Source of the DNA: an uncultured Thermoplasmatales archaeon
GTDB taxonomy: Archaea; Thermoplasmatota; E2; DHVEG-1
DNA: 64,000 nucleotides
Assembly: GCA_964406955.1 (NCBI GenBank)
Contig: CAYOTP010000001.1
Span: 5,240-69,239, forward strand
Reading direction: 5' to 3'
In this document: in pieces, positions 48,556 to 63,865 of the stretch
Numbering within the stretch: position 1 is the first letter of the stretch
How the letters are laid out: each line of letters opens with the position of its first letter
Position numbers and translations under genes: made by a program
Notes under the pieces: generated by a model
The model's database searches: none
What the model saw: the letters and a program-made list of their open reading frames with translations, nothing else
Told to the model about the DNA's origin: nothing

Positions 48556-52491
<3,936 letters not shown>

Positions 52492-52505: not shown

Positions 52506-53177
52506 TTAATTTCGCTGTTTTTTTAGATAAACAATAGCGTGAACAGGATCACCATCGTTAAGCTTAAGTTTCTTTCGAAGATTATCTGGTGAAATAAATT
52601 CCAGTATATTGGAATAATGTCCTCTTATGGGTAAAACGAGAACACATTTTTCGTTATTTATATGAGCTTTGAAACATTTCACTGCACCAAACGTTCGATT
52701 TTTTGTTCTGAACTCTTCAATTTCAATTCCTTGAAATTTTTTAATCAATCGTAACTTGTTTTTTTCGATGTGAGGGATTTTCACATTTAATGTGCCCGGA
52801 TATGGTTTAAAACCACACTGTTCATTGAACTGGGCTACATAACCTAGCTGAGCAAGATAATATGTTCCTTCACCCATTCCAGAGACAACATGGCCATCAA
52901 ATCTGATTTTTTGTGGTAACTCAAAAATATGCTTATATTGAATATATTCTTCCTTAAGAAGATCTGCACCGTTTTCAGTGATTTGAATTAATTGCTTTTT
53001 TATACCCATCTCTCGAGTAATCAAATTTAGTTTATCAAGCTCCAGAACATAACGAGATGCGGTTTGTTGACTGGTTTCAAGTTGATTGGATAGTTCAAGT
53101 GAAGAAAGTTCAACTCGATTATTGATCGCTCCGAGTAATGCAAGCTCTTTTAACATTTGCAAAAGATATGTTTTCAT
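52506..53177 (-). CDS. ribK: wHTH-fused CTP-dependent riboflavin kinase (archaeal RibK)
   Basis: N-terminal winged-helix (LSNQLETSQQTASRYVLELDKLNLI). C-terminal archaeal RibK motifs (GMGEGTYY ... PYPGTLNV). Confidence 0.75.
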   Translation of the reverse strand: MKTYLLQMLKELALLGAINNRVELSSLELSNQLETSQQTASRYVLELDKLNLITREMGIKKQLIQITENGADLLKEEYIQYKHIFELPQKIRFDGHVVSGMGEGTYYLAQLGYVAQFNEQCGFKPYPGTLNVKIPHIEKNKLRLIKKFQGIEIEEFRTKNRTFGAVKCFKAHINNEKCVLVLPIRGHYSNILEFISPDNLRKKLKLNDGDPVHAIVYLKKQRN

Positions 53178-54778: not shown

Positions 54779-55075
54779 TTTTACGGTATTTCACTACCAT
54801 CACTAAATGGTATTGTAATGTGTAGACTGGGTGGCACTCTTTGTCGAATTCATACTTCATTGTTATCATATATATTTTATAACTATAGTGGTTTGCGTTA
54901 ACGATCCTAGTAGGTGCTTTCATGTCTTTCCTTTTGGAGTGGGCTTCTTGAACTATAAATTAAATAAATGGATATTGTTGTGGCTGTAAACAAAATACAA
55001 AATATAAAAATATTTATATGAAAAAACATATAAATCATATTGACATTTATACCAATTGCTAATTGGGGACAAACC

Positions 55076-56356
55076 ATGAATTTGAATAAAGCTTTTCTAA
55101 AAAAAACCTTAGTAGTTCTTCTTTTTCTGTTTTTTTTTAGTGCAGGAACGGTTCAAAGTTTAACTGGAGATCTATTGCAGGGTAGTGAAAATTTTGAAGA
55201 TAACAATCTGGATAATATCCCGGATATAACAAATAATAATAACAATAATGATAATAATAATTATAATTTCGATTTACAAAATGATGATAAAGTAATTGAG
55301 AATAAAAACTATCCTGAAAATTCCAATACTGTTGTTTTATTGGAATCCACCTTTGAAAATGATTGGATATATGAAGGTCATCAAAATTACCCTGCACCTC
55401 CCGAATGGACGATTGAGGGAATTAGCTCAAGTTATCAGGAATCTGCCCCTTATAAAACACATTATTTTTCAAAAATTGACAAAAATGAGGCCCCTGAACT
55501 TGTTCATAGTGGAAATGCTTCTGTTGGGATATGGTGGAAAGATGGAGATAGTGAAGCAAATGATATGGGTATGATCCAGGATGAATGGTTGATCAGCCCA
55601 CCATTAAACATAAAAAATCTTCATAAAGTAGAACTAAGTTTTTGGAGTATTTATTGTCCAACTCAGGTTGATAGTATGCCATTTTATGTTGAATACAAAG
55701 TAGATAATTCATATTCAATTAAAGTGAGCTTTGATGATGGAATGACTTGGAGAACAGCTGCAGATTTAAGAGATTCCACATTTAAACTCGGTGTTGATTT
55801 GACAAGTGAGTATATCAACAATGATTTTGGAAATGGTGGTTTTTTCAATTATCATCGATTAAGAGGTGATTTCTTTAATATGTTTGATGAATTGATCGTT
55901 ATTCCGCTATCATTTAGTGAATCGGAAAGATCAATTGGTGATAACGTCCGAATTGCATGGCATTACAACTATGATAATTCATCAGAAGATCAAGCAATAT
56001 GGGTGATTGATGACGTACATATCACTGCAAGTCAAGACCAGGATAAACCAACGATAACTCTTATAGAACCTCAAGAAAATTCATTATATATTGGTAATTC
56101 TAAAATAGATATACCTGTTGATAATACAATCATTGTTGGTAGTGTCGATATTGAAGTTGATGCAAGGGATTATGAGACTGGGGTTAAGCATGTTGAGTAC
56201 TTTATTAATGGGCGACTGAAAGAAAAAGTTCAAGCTAGACCATTTATTTGGTCATGGGATGATTCTTCTTTTGGTCGGTATACAATCACAGTTAAAGCAA
56301 CTGATTTTGCAGGAAATGTAGAATCAGATGAAGTAACTATCTGGAAGTTTTTTTAA
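55076..56356 (+). CDS. secreted protein: signal peptide, poly-Asn linker, beta-sandwich domain and C-terminal Ig-like domain ending in KFF
   Basis: Start at ATG 55076 (the tracked ORF begins at an upstream TTG). NNNNNDNNNYN linker. A Trp-rich middle domain (choice-of-anchor-like?). C-terminus homologous to that of 45525-46418. Confidence 0.5.
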   Translation: MNLNKAFLKKTLVVLLFLFFFSAGTVQSLTGDLLQGSENFEDNNLDNIPDITNNNNNNDNNNYNFDLQNDDKVIENKNYPENSNTVVLLESTFENDWIYEGHQNYPAPPEWTIEGISSSYQESAPYKTHYFSKIDKNEAPELVHSGNASVGIWWKDGDSEANDMGMIQDEWLISPPLNIKNLHKVELSFWSIYCPTQVDSMPFYVEYKVDNSYSIKVSFDDGMTWRTAADLRDSTFKLGVDLTSEYINNDFGNGGFFNYHRLRGDFFNMFDELIVIPLSFSESERSIGDNVRIAWHYNYDNSSEDQAIWVIDDVHITASQDQDKPTITLIEPQENSLYIGNSKIDIPVDNTIIVGSVDIEVDARDYETGVKHVEYFINGRLKEKVQARPFIWSWDDSSFGRYTITVKATDFAGNVESDEVTIWKFF

Positions 56357-56380: not shown

Positions 56381-58306
56381 TTAAATCCCGCCAACCTTTA
56401 TTGATGGATCTCCCAGAAGAACCCATTGTTCTATCGTCTTTCTATCTATCTGACCACCGGCACTATTCACACCACCAATGATATTTAGATAATCAATGAT
56501 TGCTTGAGAGTGAATCTTTCCAAGCTGTTCAATACTTTGATTTACGTATGCATCAAAGAATCTTGGTTCAATCCATCCGCCAAGCCCCATATTCCAATGC
56601 TCATTGATATAACCATAACCCAGACCTGTATTTCCCATGGAGGCTATTGCTCCACTTTCGGGGATGAGAACAAATTTTGAGGAAAGGTCAACTGGAACCC
56701 ATTCCATATAGAAAAACCGATATGGATATGTGAAGAAATACCCCAGTAAACCATATTTTATTAAGTCGGGAATAATGTTAGCTACTGTTACGTTGAATTG
56801 TGCACTGTGGCATCCACCGAGGACAACAATTGGATATTCGCCAGTATTTGTAAATTTTTTCATGTCCCAAATACGAATTCCGTCAACGAATCTATGGTCT
56901 TCATCATCGGGAGGGTGATTTCCCCATCCTGAAGGATTACTATGACCTGCGAAATGAACAAAACCAGACCCATCATTGATTGCATCTATCACATCTTGAG
57001 GTCCTTCCCATGCCCCTGGGATGGAAAGCCAGAGTTTTTTCATAGTGAATCCAATGCTTTCAAGTAGAGATACCGTTTCTGCCGTTTCTAGTTCTCCTTC
57101 CCACCATCCAGGAGTACCTCCAATGCTTGGCGGGAATGTATCTCCAGAGACAACAGTTCCAGTTTTAAACCAGGAGTCATCTGCGTTGAGTTCGTAATCG
57201 ATTATCTTATCAACAACAGGGGCTACTTCGAATGCATATCTAAATGGTAATCGACCCACATAGACGTTGGGATAGTAATCTATGATATCCATATCTAATT
57301 CATTGTAAGACCATTCGGCGAATATGTTGTTTTCATTTGGATCCCAGCTTGAGAAATTTCCGTTGCTATCGTAAATATCTGCAAAGTAAAGGTCGCTATC
57401 GTAGCCTGTTTCCCAGCCGTCATCGTTATTTACCCGTCTTGATGGAATATGCCATTTTTGTGTTTGTCCTTTTCTGCCACCTGCTAAAAGGACGTATTCT
57501 ATACCCCAGTTTTCGATTGCATCTTTGATGAATAATTTGATGTCTTCTGCGTTATCTCTTCCGTTATATTGGGGGTAGATATTTTCCACGGTTTCTAGTG
57601 TTGTTCTTATGCCAATGTTGTTTTTATGGTTGATTAGTCGTTGCAGGTCATTTGAAAATAGTTCGTTGGTAATGATTAATAGATCGTATTCATCTGCGTT
57701 GAACAGGGTTGTTTGCGGTAGTTGATAGTGGATGGTTATATCGATTTCTTGGGGGAGATGGATAACATCGGTTGCAGGAGAATATTGGGCAAAACAATCT
57801 ACGGTCAGGAAAAGAAGTTGTTCTCCGTTTTGTAGTCCAGCTCCTTTTTGAATAATATATGGGGCATCAGGGAACAATTCCTCACTTTCATAGATCAATG
57901 TATCTAAAGCTGGTTCTTGGTACAGATGGTTGCTGGCTAGATCCTTTCTTAGTGGTACGGGTTGTGGAGCGGGTTGTATTTTTTTATCTAATGATCGTGT
58001 TTGGGTATTCATTGTTACATCTACTGTTGATATTGTTGTCCCTAGGGGGAAAGTGAATGTTTTTGAGATCTTTGGGATAATTGGTCGTCCGCTTTCTGAT
58101 AGTACTGAGTGTTGTTTTTCATTAAGCGAGATTGTTAGATAGTCGTTATTTTCTTGTATGTGAACTGTTTGAAAATTGATTTGATCTGTGATGGTAAAAT
58201 AGAGTTGTTGATCTTTTTCTTCACCTCTGTCTGAAAGGGCAGCTGTTCCTAAACCGGTAATAATTAACATACCTACAATGAACGTAGGTATCATTTTTTT
58301 CATCAT
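56381..58306 (-). CDS. secreted clan CD cysteine peptidase, gingipain (C25)-like with N-terminal propeptide
   Basis: Signal peptide. Catalytic His in GFVHFAGHSNPSGWG and Cys in VVLGGCHSAQF, with the His-then-Cys order and spacing typical of C25/C11 caspase-fold peptidases. Confidence 0.55.
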   Translation of the reverse strand: MMKKMIPTFIVGMLIITGLGTAALSDRGEEKDQQLYFTITDQINFQTVHIQENNDYLTISLNEKQHSVLSESGRPIIPKISKTFTFPLGTTISTVDVTMNTQTRSLDKKIQPAPQPVPLRKDLASNHLYQEPALDTLIYESEELFPDAPYIIQKGAGLQNGEQLLFLTVDCFAQYSPATDVIHLPQEIDITIHYQLPQTTLFNADEYDLLIITNELFSNDLQRLINHKNNIGIRTTLETVENIYPQYNGRDNAEDIKLFIKDAIENWGIEYVLLAGGRKGQTQKWHIPSRRVNNDDGWETGYDSDLYFADIYDSNGNFSSWDPNENNIFAEWSYNELDMDIIDYYPNVYVGRLPFRYAFEVAPVVDKIIDYELNADDSWFKTGTVVSGDTFPPSIGGTPGWWEGELETAETVSLLESIGFTMKKLWLSIPGAWEGPQDVIDAINDGSGFVHFAGHSNPSGWGNHPPDDEDHRFVDGIRIWDMKKFTNTGEYPIVVLGGCHSAQFNVTVANIIPDLIKYGLLGYFFTYPYRFFYMEWVPVDLSSKFVLIPESGAIASMGNTGLGYGYINEHWNMGLGGWIEPRFFDAYVNQSIEQLGKIHSQAIIDYLNIIGGVNSAGGQIDRKTIEQWVLLGDPSIKVGGI

Positions 58307-58461: not shown

Positions 58462-58536
58462 TGGGCCCGCCCGAATTTGAATCGGGGTTCATGGCTCCCA
58501 AAGCCACGAGGATGGGCCAAGCTACCCCACGGGCCC
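58462..58536 (-). tRNA. tRNA-Pro (anticodon UGG)
   Basis: Minus-strand read GGGCCCG-UG-GGGUAGCUUGGCCCAUCCU-CGUGGC-UUUGGGA-GCCAU-GAAC-CCCGA-UUCAAAU-UCGGG-CGGGCCC-A. Features: 7-bp acceptor stem, T-arm CCCGA/UCGGG with UUCAAAU loop, anticodon stem GUGGC/GCCAU with loop UUUGGGA (U33, UGG, G37). No encoded CCA. Confidence 0.75.
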
Positions 58537-58618: not shown

Positions 58619-59374
58619 ATGGATCTTGATCTGAGAAAACCAACACATCTTATCGCAGTTTTTCTTTTATTAATTAGCTTTTTTATGTTTGTAATCGTTC
58701 CAATTGCAAGTTTTTCTGGCTTTTTTGGAGCCCTTGACACGTCCGCATCTCAGTTAGAGCAATTCCCCGAAGGATTTAAGATTATTTTTGAAATATTCAC
58801 TCTGCTTATTCAGTTAACTTTGGTCATTTTCTTTTTTGTTATTGTTCCTTTTATTTGGTATAAGTTGGTAAATAATTATTCTCTTTTGCAAATGCTTGAA
58901 GCAATAAGATTAAAGAAAGAACGCTTAGACATGGCTTTTGTATATGGGATTGTTACTGCTGCCATTACTCTAGGAGCTATAATGATTATTGGCTTAATAT
59001 TCACATTTCTAGGTTTTGATTTAACCGATGCTAGTAATATAAAAGATATCGAACAGATTTTTTCCACTCCCGTAACTTTGGTACTTATCACATTTCAACC
59101 AATTACCGAAGAGATCTTTTATCGAGGTTTCCTGCTTGAAAAGATTGAAAAAATCAGTTCTACACCAGTTGCAGTCACGGTCACATCAGTTCTTTTCGGT
59201 CTTGCACATCTTTCGGTGGGAAATGTCTATCCAGCGTTTTTAACAGCTATAGCAGGTGTTATTCTTGCAGTTCTTGTGATCAAGACACAGAATCTTACCG
59301 CAGCTATTATTGCCCATATCTTGTTTAATGTCTCAAGTTTTACTCTTTATATCCTTGGGCAATCACTTATATGA
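58619..59374 (+). CDS. CPBP-family intramembrane glutamic endopeptidase (CAAX protease/Abi-like)
   Basis: Motifs EEIFYRGF (EExxxR), FGLAHL (FxxxH) and HILFN (HxxxN) in TM helices. Confidence 0.75.
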   Translation: MDLDLRKPTHLIAVFLLLISFFMFVIVPIASFSGFFGALDTSASQLEQFPEGFKIIFEIFTLLIQLTLVIFFFVIVPFIWYKLVNNYSLLQMLEAIRLKKERLDMAFVYGIVTAAITLGAIMIIGLIFTFLGFDLTDASNIKDIEQIFSTPVTLVLITFQPITEEIFYRGFLLEKIEKISSTPVAVTVTSVLFGLAHLSVGNVYPAFLTAIAGVILAVLVIKTQNLTAAIIAHILFNVSSFTLYILGQSLI

Positions 59375-59444: not shown

Positions 59445-59912
59445 GTGAATTTGATTATGAGTAATGAACAAACATTTGTAATGATTAAACCTGACGGTGT
59501 TCAACGGGGGCTTATTGGTAAAATCATTCAACGATTTGAACAAAAAGGGATAAAAATAAAAGCGATGAAACTTGTGTCTGTCTCTAGGGAATTAGCGGAA
59601 AAACATTATGGTATACACAAGGGGAAACCATTCTTTGAGCCTACGGTTGAGTATATCATTTCTTCACCGGTTGTTGCTATGGTTCTTGAAGGTGAAAACG
59701 CAATTTCCCTAGTTCGAAACATGATGGGAAAAACTAATCCATGTGAAGCAACTCCAGGGACCATTCGTGGTGACTTTGGTCAATTTATTGGTAGAAACAT
59801 CGTTCATGGTTCAGATGGAAAAGATACTGCAGAATTTGAGATTAATTTATGGTTTGACCAAGAAGAACTTGCTGGTTATACCCGTATTGATGAACCGTGG
59901 CTTACCGAGTGA
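59445..59912 (+). CDS. ndk: nucleoside diphosphate kinase
   Basis: TFVMIKPDGVQRGLIGKII ... NIVHGSD (active-site His). True start may be the Met at 59457. Confidence 0.9.
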   Translation: MNLIMSNEQTFVMIKPDGVQRGLIGKIIQRFEQKGIKIKAMKLVSVSRELAEKHYGIHKGKPFFEPTVEYIISSPVVAMVLEGENAISLVRNMMGKTNPCEATPGTIRGDFGQFIGRNIVHGSDGKDTAEFEINLWFDQEELAGYTRIDEPWLTE

Positions 59913-60018
59913 AGAACATTTGTTTTTCATCACTTTTTTCTTTTTTGTCTCTATATTTTTCATTTTTTTTTTAGCTGGCCGGTGGATTTATAACAACGAA
60001 ATGAATACCACATAGCAT

Positions 60019-60948
60019 ATGGTTTTTGACCGTCAAACACTTGTTATTCCTGATGGAACAATGATTGATGAAAATATGATTCAAACATCTGGAGATGTCA
60101 TTATTGGTGACCGCTGTCTTGTACAATATGGTATACAAACTGATGGGCGGATTTTTATCGGCGAACATGTAATTATTGATGGAGATTTGATTGCCACTGG
60201 AGATATCCGTATAGATATTTTTTCTCGAATTCGAGGAAACATGCGTAGTGAACAAAACGTGTATTTGGGCGAAAAGGTTAGTGTTGATGGGAAGCTTTCT
60301 GTTGCAGGTAATTTGGATGTTGGTGATAGTGTTAATGTTAAAGAGGGATTTGAAGCGAAAGGTTGGATTAATATTCGCACCCCGATTCCCATGGTTATTT
60401 ATATCTTTATTTATCTGATGCAATTATTGAAGATGGGCCATAGTGAGGAAATTGAACGAATCCTCCAGGAGATGGAACAGCATAATGGTGAACCGATTCC
60501 TATATCTGAAGTGTTTTTATTCGTTCCGAATAATGCGATGATTGGATCCCATTCAAAGACAGAAGGAAACCTTCGTGTTGGAAAACAATCAGTGATCAAT
60601 GGTTCATATGAAGTCAAAGGAAATATCGTTTTTGCAGATGATATTACCTTCAGTGGACTGATTACCACAAATGGATCTTTTTTCTGCGGGAAAAAAAACC
60701 GGATTAATGGATCCATACGTGCTAAAGATGCGATTCGACTTGATGAGCATACAATTGTTTCTGGTGATGTGGATGGTTTGAAACTTCACCTTGCAAAAAC
60801 TGCAGTTATCACAGGCACGTGTTATGCAACACAGGGAATGACGTTTATCACGCCTTATGATTATGAGGCGGATGAGAAGATCCGTCGATTTGAAGAGGAT
60901 TTGGAGATTCTGGAACCCTTGGCGGAATCAGAGGAGACTTCCTCATGA
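60019..60948 (+). CDS. double bactofilin-like (beta-helical polymer-forming) protein with central hydrophobic helix
   Basis: Two blocks of G/V/I-patterned beta-helix repeats (VIIGDRCLVQYGIQTDGRIFIGEHVIIDGDLIATGDIRID... and IGSHSKTEGNLRVGKQSVINGSYEVKGNIVFADDITFSGLITTNGSF...) separated by PIPMVIYIFIYLMQLL. Acidic C-terminal tail. Confidence 0.5.
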   Translation: MVFDRQTLVIPDGTMIDENMIQTSGDVIIGDRCLVQYGIQTDGRIFIGEHVIIDGDLIATGDIRIDIFSRIRGNMRSEQNVYLGEKVSVDGKLSVAGNLDVGDSVNVKEGFEAKGWINIRTPIPMVIYIFIYLMQLLKMGHSEEIERILQEMEQHNGEPIPISEVFLFVPNNAMIGSHSKTEGNLRVGKQSVINGSYEVKGNIVFADDITFSGLITTNGSFFCGKKNRINGSIRAKDAIRLDEHTIVSGDVDGLKLHLAKTAVITGTCYATQGMTFITPYDYEADEKIRRFEEDLEILEPLAESEETSS

Positions 60949-62150
60949 GTATGATGATTGGAATTGTTGGAAAACCAAATGTGGGAAAATCAACGTTTTT
61001 TAATGCAGCTACTGAAGCACATGCTGAAATTGCAAATTATCCATTTACCACCATTGATGCAAATCATGGTGTCATGTATGTCCGTAAGCCCTGTCCTCAT
61101 CGAGATTTTGAGGTGATGTGCACGCCACATAATTCAAAATGCCTTGAAGGTGTAAGGTATGTCCCTATTGAAGCGTTGGATGTTGCAGGACTTGTTCCAG
61201 ATGCATTCAAAGGAAGGGGTTTGGGAAATAAGTTCCTTGACGAGCTCAGGCAAGCTCATGCATTGATTCATATTGTGGATGGATCGGGAAGCACTGATTC
61301 TGAAGGAAACCCGGTCAAGGCAGGAAGTTACGATCCACTTAATGATGTTGATTTCTTGGAAAAAGAAATCACGTATTGGTTGAAAGGAATTATTAAGAAA
61401 AGCTGGGAAAACATTGCAAGAAAAGCGCAACTTGAAGGGAAAAAAATAGATCGTTTACTTGCTGATCAGCTCACGGGCCTTGGGGTAAATGAATCTCATA
61501 TTCATTCAGCGATACGAAAAATACAGCTGAATACAGAGAAACCATCAAATTGGACCGATGATGAACTTTTGTCCCTTTCGGAATATATACGCAAGAAAAG
61601 TAAACCTATGATCATAGCGTTCAACAAGGTGGACATTGCTGGAGATGAAGCTATTGATAAGATCGAAGAAATCAAGAAAAGAGGTTATCGAGTAATTCCA
61701 ACGAGTGCTGAGGCTGAACTTGCATTAAGCAATGCTGCAAATCAAGATCTCATTGAGTATACTCCAGGAGAGAACAGATTTACCATTAAGGCAACTCATG
61801 ATTTAAGTGAAAAGCAACGTAGTGCACTTGAATATATCCAAACAAAGGTGCTTGATATGTTTGGTTCAACTGGTATTTATCGATGTATAGAGGAATCAGT
61901 TTCCATGCTTGATTTAATTGTTGTATATCCAGTTGAGGATGAACATCATCTTACAGATAAGGAAAAACGAGTGCTTCCTGATGCCTTTTTAATTCCTAAT
62001 GGGAGTACTGCCAAAGATTTAGCGTATAAAGTTCACACAGATATTGGTGATCATTTCATTCGTGCCATTGATGCAAGAACAAAAAGGGTCATTGGTGCAG
62101 ATCATAAACTTAACGATGGTGATGTGATCAGTATTATTGCTGATTCATGA
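60945..62150 (+). CDS. Obg-like (YchF/Drg-type) GTPase with NKxD specificity motif and C-terminal TGS domain
   Basis: G1 GIVGKPNVGKST directly at the N-terminus. DVAGL. G4 AFNKVD. C-terminal TGS-like beta-grasp (HKLNDGDVISIIA). ATGA overlap with the bactofilin-like gene. Confidence 0.7.
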   Translation: MSMMIGIVGKPNVGKSTFFNAATEAHAEIANYPFTTIDANHGVMYVRKPCPHRDFEVMCTPHNSKCLEGVRYVPIEALDVAGLVPDAFKGRGLGNKFLDELRQAHALIHIVDGSGSTDSEGNPVKAGSYDPLNDVDFLEKEITYWLKGIIKKSWENIARKAQLEGKKIDRLLADQLTGLGVNESHIHSAIRKIQLNTEKPSNWTDDELLSLSEYIRKKSKPMIIAFNKVDIAGDEAIDKIEEIKKRGYRVIPTSAEAELALSNAANQDLIEYTPGENRFTIKATHDLSEKQRSALEYIQTKVLDMFGSTGIYRCIEESVSMLDLIVVYPVEDEHHLTDKEKRVLPDAFLIPNGSTAKDLAYKVHTDIGDHFIRAIDARTKRVIGADHKLNDGDVISIIADS

Positions 62151-62396
62151 TCTTGAGCTAATAAGGTTCACACGTAGCTTCATACTCGCTTACCTTTGCA
62201 CCTACGTATTCGTCTGCGAATCATGTTTTTAAAACCCTTTTTCCATATCAGTGATGGGATCACTCTTCATTGCTCAGTTAATGAGTTTTTTAGGAGGAAG
62301 AATAAATTGCCGTACAAAAAATTTAATCCAAATCAGACATCACTCTCGCAGTTATTCAATCAGAACATTGATCTTCAGAATATTCCGTTGAAAACA

Positions 62397-62666
62397 ATGA
62401 AAGTTACTATTTATGCTCTTCGTTGGATATTTCTATTGATTTTTTTGTTCATCATTGTTGGTATCGTACTTTTGTTTGTCACTGGTGGCCAATCGTATAT
62501 TCAAGCTATCGTTGGTTACAGTATCACAGGTTTTTTCACTTTTTTCATGGGTTATTTTGGTTGGATCCTGGCACAAGGTATCATTGAGATGATCACAGGA
62601 AAAGAACCAAAAGAGGAAAAAACGTATTCTTATTTTTTCAGTAAGAAGGATCATTATCGATTTTAG
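62397..62666 (+). CDS. small membrane protein (2-3 TM helices)
   Basis: Start at the internal MKVTIYALRWIFLLIF. The upstream part of the tracked ORF looks noncoding. No family recognised. Confidence 0.35.
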   Translation: MKVTIYALRWIFLLIFLFIIVGIVLLFVTGGQSYIQAIVGYSITGFFTFFMGYFGWILAQGIIEMITGKEPKEEKTYSYFFSKKDHYRF

Positions 62667-62929: not shown

Positions 62930-63865
62930 TTAAGGTATGAGGACCTTATCTATGACGTGAATAATTCCATTGCTACAATGGATATCTGCTATTGTTACTT
63001 CTGCATCGTTGATGAATACTGTTTCATTAACAATACTAATTGTAATATCAGTTCCCTGGGTGGTTGTCACAGTCATATTATTACTAAGATCAGTTGATAA
63101 TACAATATCTGGAATTACATGATATAAGAGGATATCTGAAAGATTTGCAGTGTCATTGTTGATTAGATCAGATAAATATTCGCTGTCCAATTCTTCGAAA
63201 GCTTCATCTGTTGGTGCAAAAACAGTATATAGATTTGATTCATCACTTAGCGTGGTATCTAAATCTGCCGCGCTAACTGCCTCTACCAATGTATTGAAAT
63301 TTTCCGAAATTGCTGTTTCTACTATGTTATCCTGTGGGCTGAGTACGCTGTCAATAACATGAATAACTCCATTGCTACATTCGATATCTGCTGTTGTCAC
63401 AATGGCATCATTGATAGATACCGTCGCATCATCAATATTAATGTCAATATATTTTCCTTGTATTGTTTCCACTCTCATTTCATCACTGAGATCATCAGAT
63501 AAGGTTGTTCCAAGGATGACATGATACGTTAATATTTTCGTTAAGGTTTCAGTATCATTCTCAATTAGATCAGATAAATATTCGCTGTCCAATTCTTCGA
63601 AAGCTTCATCTGTTGGAGCAAAAACAGTGAATTCTTTTGATTCATCACTTAATGTCTCTTCGAGACCTGCAGCAAGAAGAGCGTCGATAAGTGTGTTGAA
63701 ATCATCGTGGTCCCTTGCAGTTTCTACAATATTTTTCACTTCTGGTTCATCATCTTCTTCCTCTACACATCCAGATAATGTAATTGCACTAAATGCCATT
63801 ACGATCATCAAGAAGCCGGCTATGAGTTTATTTATTTTACTTTTCATACTTTTCTCTCTCCTCAC
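62930..63865 (-). CDS. lipoprotein with two tandem fasciclin (FAS1) domains
   Basis: Lipobox-like LSGC after the signal peptide. Two copies of the FAS1 motifs (TVFAPTDEAF ... NGVIHVID / NGIIHVID). Acidic low-complexity linkers. Confidence 0.8.
   Translation of the reverse strand: MRREKSMKSKINKLIAGFLMIVMAFSAITLSGCVEEEDDEPEVKNIVETARDHDDFNTLIDALLAAGLEETLSDESKEFTVFAPTDEAFEELDSEYLSDLIENDTETLTKILTYHVILGTTLSDDLSDEMRVETIQGKYIDINIDDATVSINDAIVTTADIECSNGVIHVIDSVLSPQDNIVETAISENFNTLVEAVSAADLDTTLSDESNLYTVFAPTDEAFEELDSEYLSDLINNDTANLSDILLYHVIPDIVLSTDLSNNMTVTTTQGTDITISIVNETVFINDAEVTIADIHCSNGIIHVIDKVLIP
63163..63628. repeat. 64-nt near-identical direct repeat pair (63163-63226 and 63565-63628, 1 mismatch) inside the FAS1 gene
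   Basis: TTAGATCAGATAAATATTCGCTGTCCAATTCTTCGAAAGCTTCATCTGTTGG(T/A)GCAAAAACAGT occurs twice, 402 nt apart (one FAS1 domain length). Flanks are diverged copies. Confidence 0.9.

Follow-up and report, generated by a model that had tools for sequence, protein, structure and literature searches.

Halofilin A (HalA, HVO_1610) from Haloferax volcanii consists of two bactofilin subdomains of six windings each, which are present in one polypeptide chain and are joined by an alpha-helical hairpin (approximately residues 122–161) with a hydrophobic first helix (Curtis et al., 2024, PNAS; PMC11459167). The segment R122–D161 binds to the membrane and is required for the formation of polymers in H. volcanii, and the HalA family is found only in archaea (PMC11459167). 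HalA was characterized only in 2024, and the literature searched names neither a partner nor a regulator for it. The GTPases of the OBG family are as a whole tied to ribosomes and translation (PMC8629797), Ygr210 appearing in this source just as a subfamily.

Here we describe a locus of an uncultured Thermoplasmatales archaeon at which a gene for a HalA-type protein of 309 residues is directly followed by a gene for a Ygr210-type GTPase of 401 residues. The window is the whole stretch of DNA analyzed (64,000 nucleotides). Both open reading frames, which had been predicted from the sequence to encode a double bactofilin-like protein and an Obg-like GTPase (the original prediction), are real at the coordinates given in Table 1. 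Both genes are from known families, the double-bactofilin architecture having already been described as halofilin A (PMC11459167); it is their pairing that is the new element. No description of a linkage between halA and a Ygr210 GTPase gene was found in the literature searched, and the main text of PMC11459167 mentions neither a GTPase neighbor nor synteny, in agreement with the original prediction, in which the pairing could not be matched to a described one.

Table 1. Features of the halA–GTPase locus (positions in the window; AF2, AlphaFold2).
Feature	Positions	Strand	Basis and remarks
Promoter-like element, BRE-like ccggtgga then TATA-like TTTATAA (59987–59993)	59979–59993	+	Motif position conserved
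HalA-family double bactofilin gene (halofilin A-like)	60019–60948	+	309 aa
N-terminal bactofilin-like beta-helical subdomain	60040–60375	+	Residues 8–119, about six windings; AF2 strands, pLDDT about 90
Alpha-helical hairpin	60382–60501	+	Residues 122–161; AF2 helices, hydrophobicity, hydrophobic moment
C-terminal bactofilin subdomain	60514–60849	+	Residues 166–277; Pfam stretch 174–268; AF2 pLDDT 90–95
C-terminal helix and acidic tail	60850–60945	+	Helix at residues 282–295; AF2 helix, residue counts
Shine-Dalgarno-like GGAG within the last halA codons	60933–60936	+	8 nt 5' of the GTPase ATG; read from sequence
Ygr210-subfamily OBG-family GTPase gene	60945–62150	+	401 aa; full-length NF007171, PF08438, PF01926, PF02824
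YGR210-like G4-containing domain of the GTPase			Residues 225–332; PF08438, 109.3 bits
TGS domain of the GTPase	61971–62138	+	Residues 343–398; 52.4 bits
Two T5 tracts, possible archaeal terminator of the bicistron	62226–62242	+	Sequence only

The HalA-Type Protein

The two beta-helical blocks of the bactofilin type that had been proposed for the 309-residue protein are borne out by a family model, by a structure prediction and by comparison of its halves. The protein scores above the Pfam gathering threshold for bactofilins in two stretches (PF04519, 42.9 versus 27.9 bits), the best of which is the C-terminal one; its N- and C-terminal halves are mutually homologous (hhalign probability 97.8%, E = 7.8e-13); and AlphaFold2 predicts two beta-helical blocks of approximately 112 residues and roughly 6 turns each, both with a pLDDT of about 90. 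The pTM of the model (0.72) suggests that the relative arrangement of the two subdomains is defined. The beta-helix is right-handed and superimposable on those of solved bactofilins, with which the protein is to be grouped. A search with the protein yielded 744 homologues at E ≤ 0.001, which argues that the features of both open reading frames are not due to chance; the 120 of the 744 that were listed are all full-length (about 300–313 aa). The identity is 37–39% to proteins from Methanosarcinales and approximately 31–33% to haloarchaeal HalA-family proteins in full-length alignment (e.g., 33% over 287 aa with E = 2e-52 to P0441 from Natrinema), the N-terminal subdomain being the most conserved portion in the family. 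In a tblastn search of the PLSDB plasmids with the 309-residue open reading frame there were zero matches. Judged from its sequence and its predicted fold the protein is a member of the HalA family, the likeness to HVO_1610 being based on the published description.

Many database entries name relatives of the protein "acyltransferase" or "predicted acyltransferase (DUF342 family)", relatives show faint matches to Hexapep/LbH models in Pfam, and the protein itself matches LpxD and LpxA weakly (TIGR01853, 22 bits; PDB 4e75, E = 2e-4). The protein would then be an acyltransferase with hexapeptide repeats forming a left-handed beta-helix, a reading with hardly any probability left: no acyltransferase family model was matched above its cutoff and the fold is not left-handed, so that an LpxA/LpxD-like identity is effectively refuted and the assignment as a bactofilin stands.

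Between the two subdomains AlphaFold2 places a hairpin of two helices (residues 126–136 and 143–154) at the same position as in the published HalA. The first of these helices, PIPMVIYIFIYLMQLL, is hydrophobic (mean hydrophobicity 0.76) and may serve as membrane-targeting sequence; the other one is acidic and amphipathic. The strongly hydrophobic helix of the original prediction is thus found again, both as a predicted helix and in IPMVIYIFIYLMQLL, which is the most hydrophobic 15-residue window of the protein. The signature GFEA[KN]GWIxIRxPxP, which in an alignment is invariant from Thermoplasmatota to Halobacteria, has its end within the hairpin segment. The acidic tail, also predicted, is evident from 12 Asp/Glu versus 3 Lys/Arg among the last 32 residues.

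The Ygr210-Type GTPase

The 401-residue protein is by its sequence an OBG GTPase of the Ygr210 subfamily. It matches NF007171 ("YchF-related putative GTPase") with 570.8 bits (cutoff 387), residues 1–400 being aligned to positions 1–396 of the 397 of the profile, and it matches the GTP-binding protein from Pyrococcus horikoshii (PDB 1wxq) over residues 3–399 with E = 1.1e-124. The motifs are G1 GKPNVGKS (residues 9–16), G3 DVAG (79), G4 NKVD (227) and G5 SAE (254). A G1 motif at the extreme N-terminus, a GTP-specific NKxD instead of the G4 of YchF and a C-terminal TGS domain had all been predicted and are all present. The predicted Obg-like GTPase is indeed of the OBG family, and it is neither YchF nor Obg proper, the equivalog models of both scoring far under their cutoffs. 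For YchF/OLA1 the score is 124.3 versus 279.2 bits (TIGR00092) and that of PF06071, the model of the YchF C-terminal domain (DUF933), is 19.1 versus 27, and the G4 motif is NKVD rather than NxxE. For Obg/CgtA the score is 81.7 versus 280 bits (TIGR02729) with the G domain alone matched, and with G1 at residue 9 there is no space for an N-terminal Obg-fold domain. For the Ygr210 subfamily a structure has been solved, and no cellular role of it is known to us.

Organization of the Locus

The locus is, as read from its layout, a two-gene operon: the gap is tight and conserved, a GGAG precedes the GTPase gene and a TATA-like element is located 5' of halA, the halA/GTPase junction leaving no space for a promoter ahead of the GTPase gene. 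The TTTATAA lies 32 nt 5' of the halA-like ATG, and almost every linked locus of Thermoplasmatota has the motif ccgttgNNTTTATAA at this position; hexamers of the TATA-like kind gave 86 pattern matches (overlapping ones counted) at −35 to −31 versus 1–12 in each other 5-nt bin. From what is known of archaeal promoters a BRE/TATA-like element of this kind is expected to act as promoter, and its distance from the ATG points to a leaderless transcript or one with a very short leader. The GGAG is a putative ribosome-binding signal for the GTPase gene, and in relatives a conserved end of the halA gene, ...TTGGAGTAG, sets it approximately 8–10 nt 5' of the GTPase ATG. The two T5 tracts 76–92 nt past the GTPase stop codon might, at best, terminate the bicistron.

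The stop codon of the first open reading frame overlaps with the start codon of the second (ATGA, 60945–60948) just as had been predicted. This overlap is confined to the window and the two relatives closest to it; in most others there is a spacer of 5–7 nt with GGAG.

Conservation of the Gene Pair

Among the 58 Thermoplasmatota reference-genome loci with both genes (species-level), 55 have the GTPase start −4 to 48 nt past the HalA stop, mostly at 5–7 nt (mode 5–6), and in the linked loci the conserved GGAG precedes the GTPase. Outside this phylum, the GTPase gene lies downstream of halA on the same strand in 53 (83%) of the 64 haloarchaeal metagenome loci that were informative, with a gap of at most 300 nt in 34 of the 53. 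Of seven haloarchaeal genomes, five have it within approximately 2 kb of halA, the order halA then GTPase being found in three, and both Methanonatronarchaeia genomes show the order halA–DUF2095–GTPase on one strand. The inserted genes in Halobacteria and Methanonatronarchaeia differ by genus and proximity is still kept. Conservation of the pairing in relatives, on which the original prediction had been made dependent, is therefore seen in Thermoplasmatota, Halobacteria and Methanonatronarchaeia. In Halobacteria the spacer between halA and the GTPase gene seems to hold a promoter-like motif of its own, so that co-transcription would not be universal.

The linkage is absent from Methanosarcinales (6 loci), from Natrialbales (2 genomes) and from several Thermoplasmatota lineages with HalA. 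A locus labeled "Halobacteriales" (L063) was discarded as a haloarchaeal example because its relatives are Thermoplasmatota MAGs, and also because P0124, an 83% identical protein, is without a GTPase neighbor. Fusion proteins of HalA and GTPase were not found among the best 150 family representatives, and the extensions of ten extended HalA variants scanned contain no recognizable Pfam domain. In H. volcanii, approximately 2 kb separate halA from HVO_1608 (391 aa), which is located on the flank opposite to HVO_1611; by length, strand and position it is a candidate Ygr210 GTPase.

One explanation for this distribution is phylogenetic inertia, i.e., that the gene order arose by accident in an ancestor and is still unbroken without having selective meaning. 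Short intergenic spacers indeed offer little target to rearrangement, a single clade could comprise all 55 linked Thermoplasmatota genomes, and there are the HalA-bearing lineages without linkage just mentioned. We nevertheless consider inertia improbable, since among the linked Thermoplasmatota the identity to the proteins of the window falls to 45% (HalA) and 59% (GTPase) and only about half of the loci still carry the upstream genes (ndk and CPBP), whereas the 5–7 nt junction is kept, and since the same order appears again in Halobacteria and Methanonatronarchaeia despite different insertions.

What the Pairing May Mean

Gene order kept across phyla is an established sign of functional or physical interaction. 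From gene context we infer a functional coupling of the two proteins, and on balance we lean slightly toward the view that the products of the halA–GTPase operon act together, the GTPase being a nucleotide-state-dependent partner of the HalA scaffold. Transcription would probably start from the conserved TATA element approximately 32 nt 5' of halA and yield a leaderless mRNA, from which the GTPase would be translated via coupling or via re-initiation at the GGAG inside the end of halA; with one such mRNA and coupled or re-initiated translation, HalA and GTPase would be made together. By homology with H. volcanii HalA, the HalA-type protein is expected to form nucleotide-independent, membrane-associated polymers that serve cell-shape integrity, with the hydrophobic first hairpin helix anchoring the protein to the cytoplasmic membrane. 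The GTPase could then control the place and time of HalA polymer assembly, or it could be brought to the membrane by these polymers. By either route remodeling of envelope and shape would be tied to GTP or translation status, in analogy to the small GTPases that work with the bactofilin BacP in Myxococcus. It speaks against this view that Ygr210 GTPases occur beyond the expected range of HalA, the closest solved relative being from P. horikoshii and the family name coming from a yeast gene; the core function of the GTPase therefore cannot depend on HalA.

It should be considered, however, that the two genes might only be co-expressed. The GTPase would then be a housekeeping, ribosome-associated enzyme and halA would be co-transcribed with it because both are growth-linked, their products not interacting. 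This we regard as possible, if rather unlikely. The link of OBG-family GTPases to ribosomes or translation is the usual one (PMC8629797), the protein is highly conserved and so near to that from P. horikoshii (E = 1e-124) that it must be working in lineages for which no HalA is expected, in Ca. Methanohalarchaeum the pair is found amid genes for ribosomal proteins and aminoacyl-tRNA synthetases, and the linkage has been lost several times with both genes retained. Yet incidental operon membership seldom outlasts divergence at the level of phyla, whereas here three major lineages share the order with changing surroundings, and in Halobacteria the adjacency persists in most informative loci despite seemingly separate promoters.

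A wider reading, in which HalA and the Ygr210 GTPase are an ancient archaeal cytoskeletal module, either a polymer under a GTPase switch or a membrane platform for the GTPase, is offered tentatively and with more doubt than belief. If the module is true, it would give the orphan Ygr210 subfamily of archaea and fungi its first cellular function, and archaeal scaffolds of the bactofilin type would have their first conserved partner that is a GTPase, the control of cell shape or of the division plane being possibly coupled to translational or GTP status. If there is co-expression only, the locus adds an ordinary member to each of two known families. With its order kept in Thermoplasmatota, Halobacteria and Methanonatronarchaeia, the pair offers a concrete, testable lead on both proteins that can be pursued in the genetically tractable H. 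volcanii.

Comparison with Known Systems

YchF/OLA1 is of the same OBG family as the GTPase of the window and has a similar layout of G domain plus insertion (PDB 1jal, E = 4e-26), but YchF/OLA1 has NxxE as G4 and a YchF-GTPase_C domain, whereas the window GTPase has NKVD and a C-terminal TGS domain. With the Ygr210 proteins (PDB 1wxq, yeast YGR210c, NF007171) it shares G1–G5, NKxD, the YGR210-like domain and TGS; no structural difference is conspicuous, and what sets it apart is its context directly 3' of halA. A possible precedent for a bactofilin scaffold working with GTPase switches is BacP with SofG and MglA in Myxococcus xanthus (Bulyha et al., 2013, as cited in PMC11459167). SofG and MglA are, however, small Ras-like bacterial proteins, whereas the GTPase considered here is archaeal and of the OBG/TGS type. 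For the M. xanthus module we know of no conserved operon.

The canonical bactofilins, BacA of Caulobacter (PDB 2n3d) and TtBac of Thermus (PDB 6ria), consist of one beta-helical domain that is preceded by a membrane-targeting peptide at the N-terminus, whereas in the protein of the window the domain is duplicated and the putative membrane-binding element is an internal hairpin. In subdomains, in the position of the hairpin and in disordered or acidic termini the protein is like HalA of H. volcanii, from which it differs in being from Thermoplasmatota, in its short tail and in its tight bicistron with a GTPase gene.

The first gene product is a double bactofilin of the HalA type

The first gene of the pair (halA) encodes a 309-aa protein that matches the Pfam bactofilin family PF04519 with 42.9 bits versus a gathering threshold of 27.9. 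The two beta-helical blocks recognized in the original prediction are mutually homologous (hhalign probability 97.8%, E = 7.8e-13). Its hydrophobic central segment and acidic tail were likewise borne out: no other 15-residue window of the protein is as hydrophobic as the first helix of the segment, IPMVIYIFIYLMQLL, and of the 32 tail residues 12 are Asp/Glu and 3 are Lys/Arg. In the AlphaFold2 model (14 homologues as input, mean pLDDT 77.5, pTM 0.72) the beta-helices at residues 8–119 and 166–277 (pLDDT about 90) are connected by helices 126–136 and 143–154 (low confidence), and a C-terminal helix follows the second. The sole other sequence matches are to LpxD and LpxA, with scores about ten-fold under the curated cutoffs and marginal ones against PDB sequences; the probability that the protein is an acyltransferase is negligible.

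Identity to the window protein is 37–39% in Methanosarcinales members and 33% over 287 residues (E = 2e-52) in a HalA-family protein from Natrinema. In an alignment with twelve haloarchaeal proteins, one from Methanonatronarchaeum and one from Ca. Methanohalarchaeum, the signature GFEA[KN]GWIxIRxPxP is invariant where the N-terminal helix meets the hairpin. Among 1.84 billion cluster representatives, a profile search yielded 74 clusters at E ≤ 1e-30. In separate homologue searches, all closest relatives among the matches listed come from Thermoplasmatota MAGs, including SG8-52-3 and SM1-50 from estuarine sediment, which belong to Marine Benthic Group D.

The second gene product is a Ygr210-type GTPase

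Along its entire length the 401-aa protein fits NCBIfam NF007171 ("YchF-related putative GTPase"), with 570.8 bits where the cutoff is 387. It also matches Pfam YGR210-like_G4 (PF08438), MMR_HSR1 and TGS, and PDB 1wxq, a GTP-binding protein from Pyrococcus horikoshii (E = 1.1e-124), whereas the YchF and Obg equivalog models remain far under their cutoffs. G1 lies, as had been read from the sequence, at the extreme N-terminus (residues 9–16), G3 is DVAG, G5 is SAE, and the predicted C-terminal TGS domain is present. The claim of a GTP-specific G4 also proved correct: the motif is NKVD, in contrast to NxxE in YchF. Because of these matches, the low YchF and Obg scores and the G4 motif, the protein is by sequence assigned to Ygr210, which is among the five subfamilies that make up the OBG family (PMC8629797). 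Both genes are new members of known families. To our knowledge, the Ygr210 subfamily has no established cellular function.

Gene order in Thermoplasmatota

Features in the window around the halA-GTPase pair
Feature	Position	Strand	Size	Remarks
LigA and family-X DNA polymerase genes	48765–52491	-		Bacterial-type NAD-dependent DNA ligase (adenylation, OB, zinc-finger, HhH, BRCT domains) directly adjoining polymerase with PHP domain
CTP-dependent riboflavin kinase	52506–53177			After LigA/polymerase genes; archaeal-type enzyme
Secreted-looking protein	55040–56356	+		Bacterial Ig domain; adjoins C25 peptidase gene
C25 (gingipain-like) peptidase	56381–58306	-		With propeptide domain
tRNA-Pro	58462–58536	-		Upstream side of pair
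CPBP/Rce1-like intramembrane protease	58619–59374	+		Upstream of halA
ndk (nucleoside diphosphate kinase)	59445–59912	+		Upstream of halA
TATA-like part of ccgttgNNTTTATAA	59987–59993	+		About 32 nt ahead of halA ATG
halA-like ORF	60019–60948	+	309 aa	
GAGGAG, Shine-Dalgarno-like	60931–60936	+		8 nt ahead of GTPase ATG
GTPase ORF	60945–62150	+	401 aa	
Small predicted membrane protein	62196–62666	+		ORF listed with TTG start, true start probably later; no Pfam family above threshold
Two-domain fasciclin protein	62930–63865	-		

The overlap of stop and start noted earlier is a shared ATGA in the window sequence, and the pairing is conserved in relatives. With each GTDB species represented by one genome, relatives of the first gene turned up at 80 loci, 58 of which also have the GTPase; in 55 of these 58 the HalA stop lies −4 to 48 nt from the GTPase start, most often 5–7 nt. 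Of the other three, L059 and L063 have about 1 kb inserted, and L056 is artefactual: its HalA-like gene (L056:6001-6912) contains an in-frame stop, which could reflect a pseudogene, recoding or faulty assembly. L063 is titled "Halobacteriales archaeon", a doubtful label since its HalA has relatives in Thermoplasmatota and Euryarchaeota MAGs only.

ccgttgNNTTTATAA stands upstream of halA in nearly all linked loci (those with both genes close together), its TATA-like part about 32 nt from the ATG. In archaeal promoters a TATA element this near the ATG gives leaderless or near-leaderless mRNA, which is therefore predicted here. The final HalA codons in relatives (...TTG GAG TAG) put GGAG about 8–10 nt ahead of the GTPase ATG. 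Because of the upstream TATA element and a junction too short for a promoter, the pair is most likely a bicistron with a leaderless first cistron and a second one translated via the Shine-Dalgarno-like site or by re-initiation.

About half of the linked loci share with the window the ndk and CPBP/Rce1-like genes ahead of halA. These are probably transcribed separately, since ndk is set apart from halA by T-rich tracts and by the TATA element of the latter. Most linked Thermoplasmatota loci have a homologue of the small membrane protein 3′ of the GTPase, either about 100–450 nt or 2–4 kb away.

None of the six Methanosarcinales loci shows the linkage, and more distant Thermoplasmatota lineages lack it as well. 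Where it exists, the junction is retained although identity to the window proteins drops to 45% (HalA) and 59% (GTPase), and also in loci that lack the upstream ndk and CPBP genes; that the pairing reflects inertia appears improbable.

Gene order in Halobacteria and Methanonatronarchaeia

HalA-family proteins of cultured Halobacteria were reached with the Ca. Methanohalarchaeum homologue as bridge query. In three annotated neighbourhoods the Ygr210-type GTPase gene comes after halA, with one gene between them: a 143-aa gene on the opposite strand in Haloarcula litorea, a DUF7282 gene on the opposite strand in Halorientalis pallida and a phosphotriesterase-family gene in Halovenus marina. In Halonotius roseus and GCA_000347535.1 the GTPase gene lies 0.4–1.4 kb upstream of halA and divergent, and in Natrinema amylolyticum and Halobiforma nitratireducens no GTPase was found within 6 kb of halA. 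In Methanonatronarchaeum sp. and Ca. Methanohalarchaeum halA, DUF2095 and GTPase genes are packed in that order on one strand. The DUF2095 gene (118–122 aa; L087:6965-7321 (+), L091:6896-7264 (+)) overlaps the halA end in both genomes, and the cluster is surrounded by ribosomal-protein and aminoacyl-tRNA synthetase genes.

The haloarchaeal alignment, used to scan metagenome contigs, picked up another 80 loci, of which 16 are too short to judge. The GTPase gene follows halA on the same strand in 53 of the 64 informative loci (34 with a gap of at most 300 nt, mostly 30–90 nt; 15 with an insertion of more than 1 kb), while 11 have none although 2.5 kb or more follows halA on the contig. The 30–90 nt spacers (L101–L172) contain CGAAA and then a T-rich stretch (CGAAA...TTT), 25–35 nt before the GTPase ATG. 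We take these motifs to resemble haloarchaeal BRE/TATA elements, as for the promoter of a leaderless mRNA, and the haloarchaeal GTPase may therefore have its own promoter.

Of 77 informative haloarchaeal metagenome loci (L085–L173), 54 have a DUF5800 gene (65–67 aa; e.g., L086:5647-5844 (-), L090:5674-5874 (-)) divergently upstream of halA, usually 100–240 nt away; neither the window nor the Thermoplasmatota loci have it. CdpA is a haloarchaeal cell-division protein, and CdpA_N-domain genes flank the pair in Haloarcula litorea and Halovenus marina (L086:8884-9363 (+); L089:4259-5806 (-)). For Haloferax volcanii, a supplementary table of the study on the cell-division regulator CdrS gives HVO_1608 (391 aa, minus strand, start 1,479,374) and HVO_1611 (67 aa, plus strand, start 1,481,424); between them are halA (HVO_1610) and the lipobox-protein gene HVO_1609. 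In the same source HVO_1611, beside halA, has a CdrS binding motif at −71, and the expression table lists halA with a value of −0.65 (adjusted p 0.005) (PMC8406309). HVO_1608 is by size a candidate Ygr210 GTPase (392–393 aa in haloarchaea), and the PRC-barrel paralogue HVO_1607 has the adjacent locus number.

Do the two proteins work together?

There is good support for both the family assignments and the operon geometry. Gene order conserved across lineages is an established though indirect indicator of a functional link, and its retention across three major archaeal lineages suggests that the two products work together; we lean slightly toward a real functional module. The GTPase would then act as a GTP-state-dependent regulator of the HalA scaffold or, alternatively, would be a client recruited to the membrane by it. 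That the two are merely co-expressed is less probable but a serious alternative. The GTPase function cannot depend on HalA, because its closest solved relative comes from P. horikoshii and a yeast gene gave the family its name. Also against a dedicated partnership, OBG-family proteins are generally ribosome-associated (PMC8629797), the linkage was lost several times, and no HalA-GTPase fusion occurs among the best 150 family representatives.

Comparison with halofilin A

As originally noted, the pairing could not be matched to a described module. The halofilin paper does not mention it in its main text, where the words neighbour, synteny and operon do not occur and "GTPase" stands in a reference title only (PMC11459167), and neither do later papers that cite halofilins. 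No paper with "bactofilin" and "YchF" together was found in a literature search that was incomplete, so that earlier notice elsewhere is possible.

The double-bactofilin architecture is already described, as halofilin A (HalA, HVO_1610) of H. volcanii, defined by Curtis et al. (2024). In HalA, two bactofilin subdomains of six windings each lie head-to-head and are joined by an alpha-helical hairpin (R122–D161) with a hydrophobic first helix. The protein forms polymers, gathers where membrane curvature is positive and is required for shape integrity in the disk-to-rod transition; its cluster is found in archaea only (PMC11459167). Compared with the published description of HVO_1610, the window protein has its two subdomains and the hairpin between them at the same residue numbers. 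Both families being known, what appears to be new here is the conserved halA-Ygr210 linkage, which is directly testable in Haloferax.
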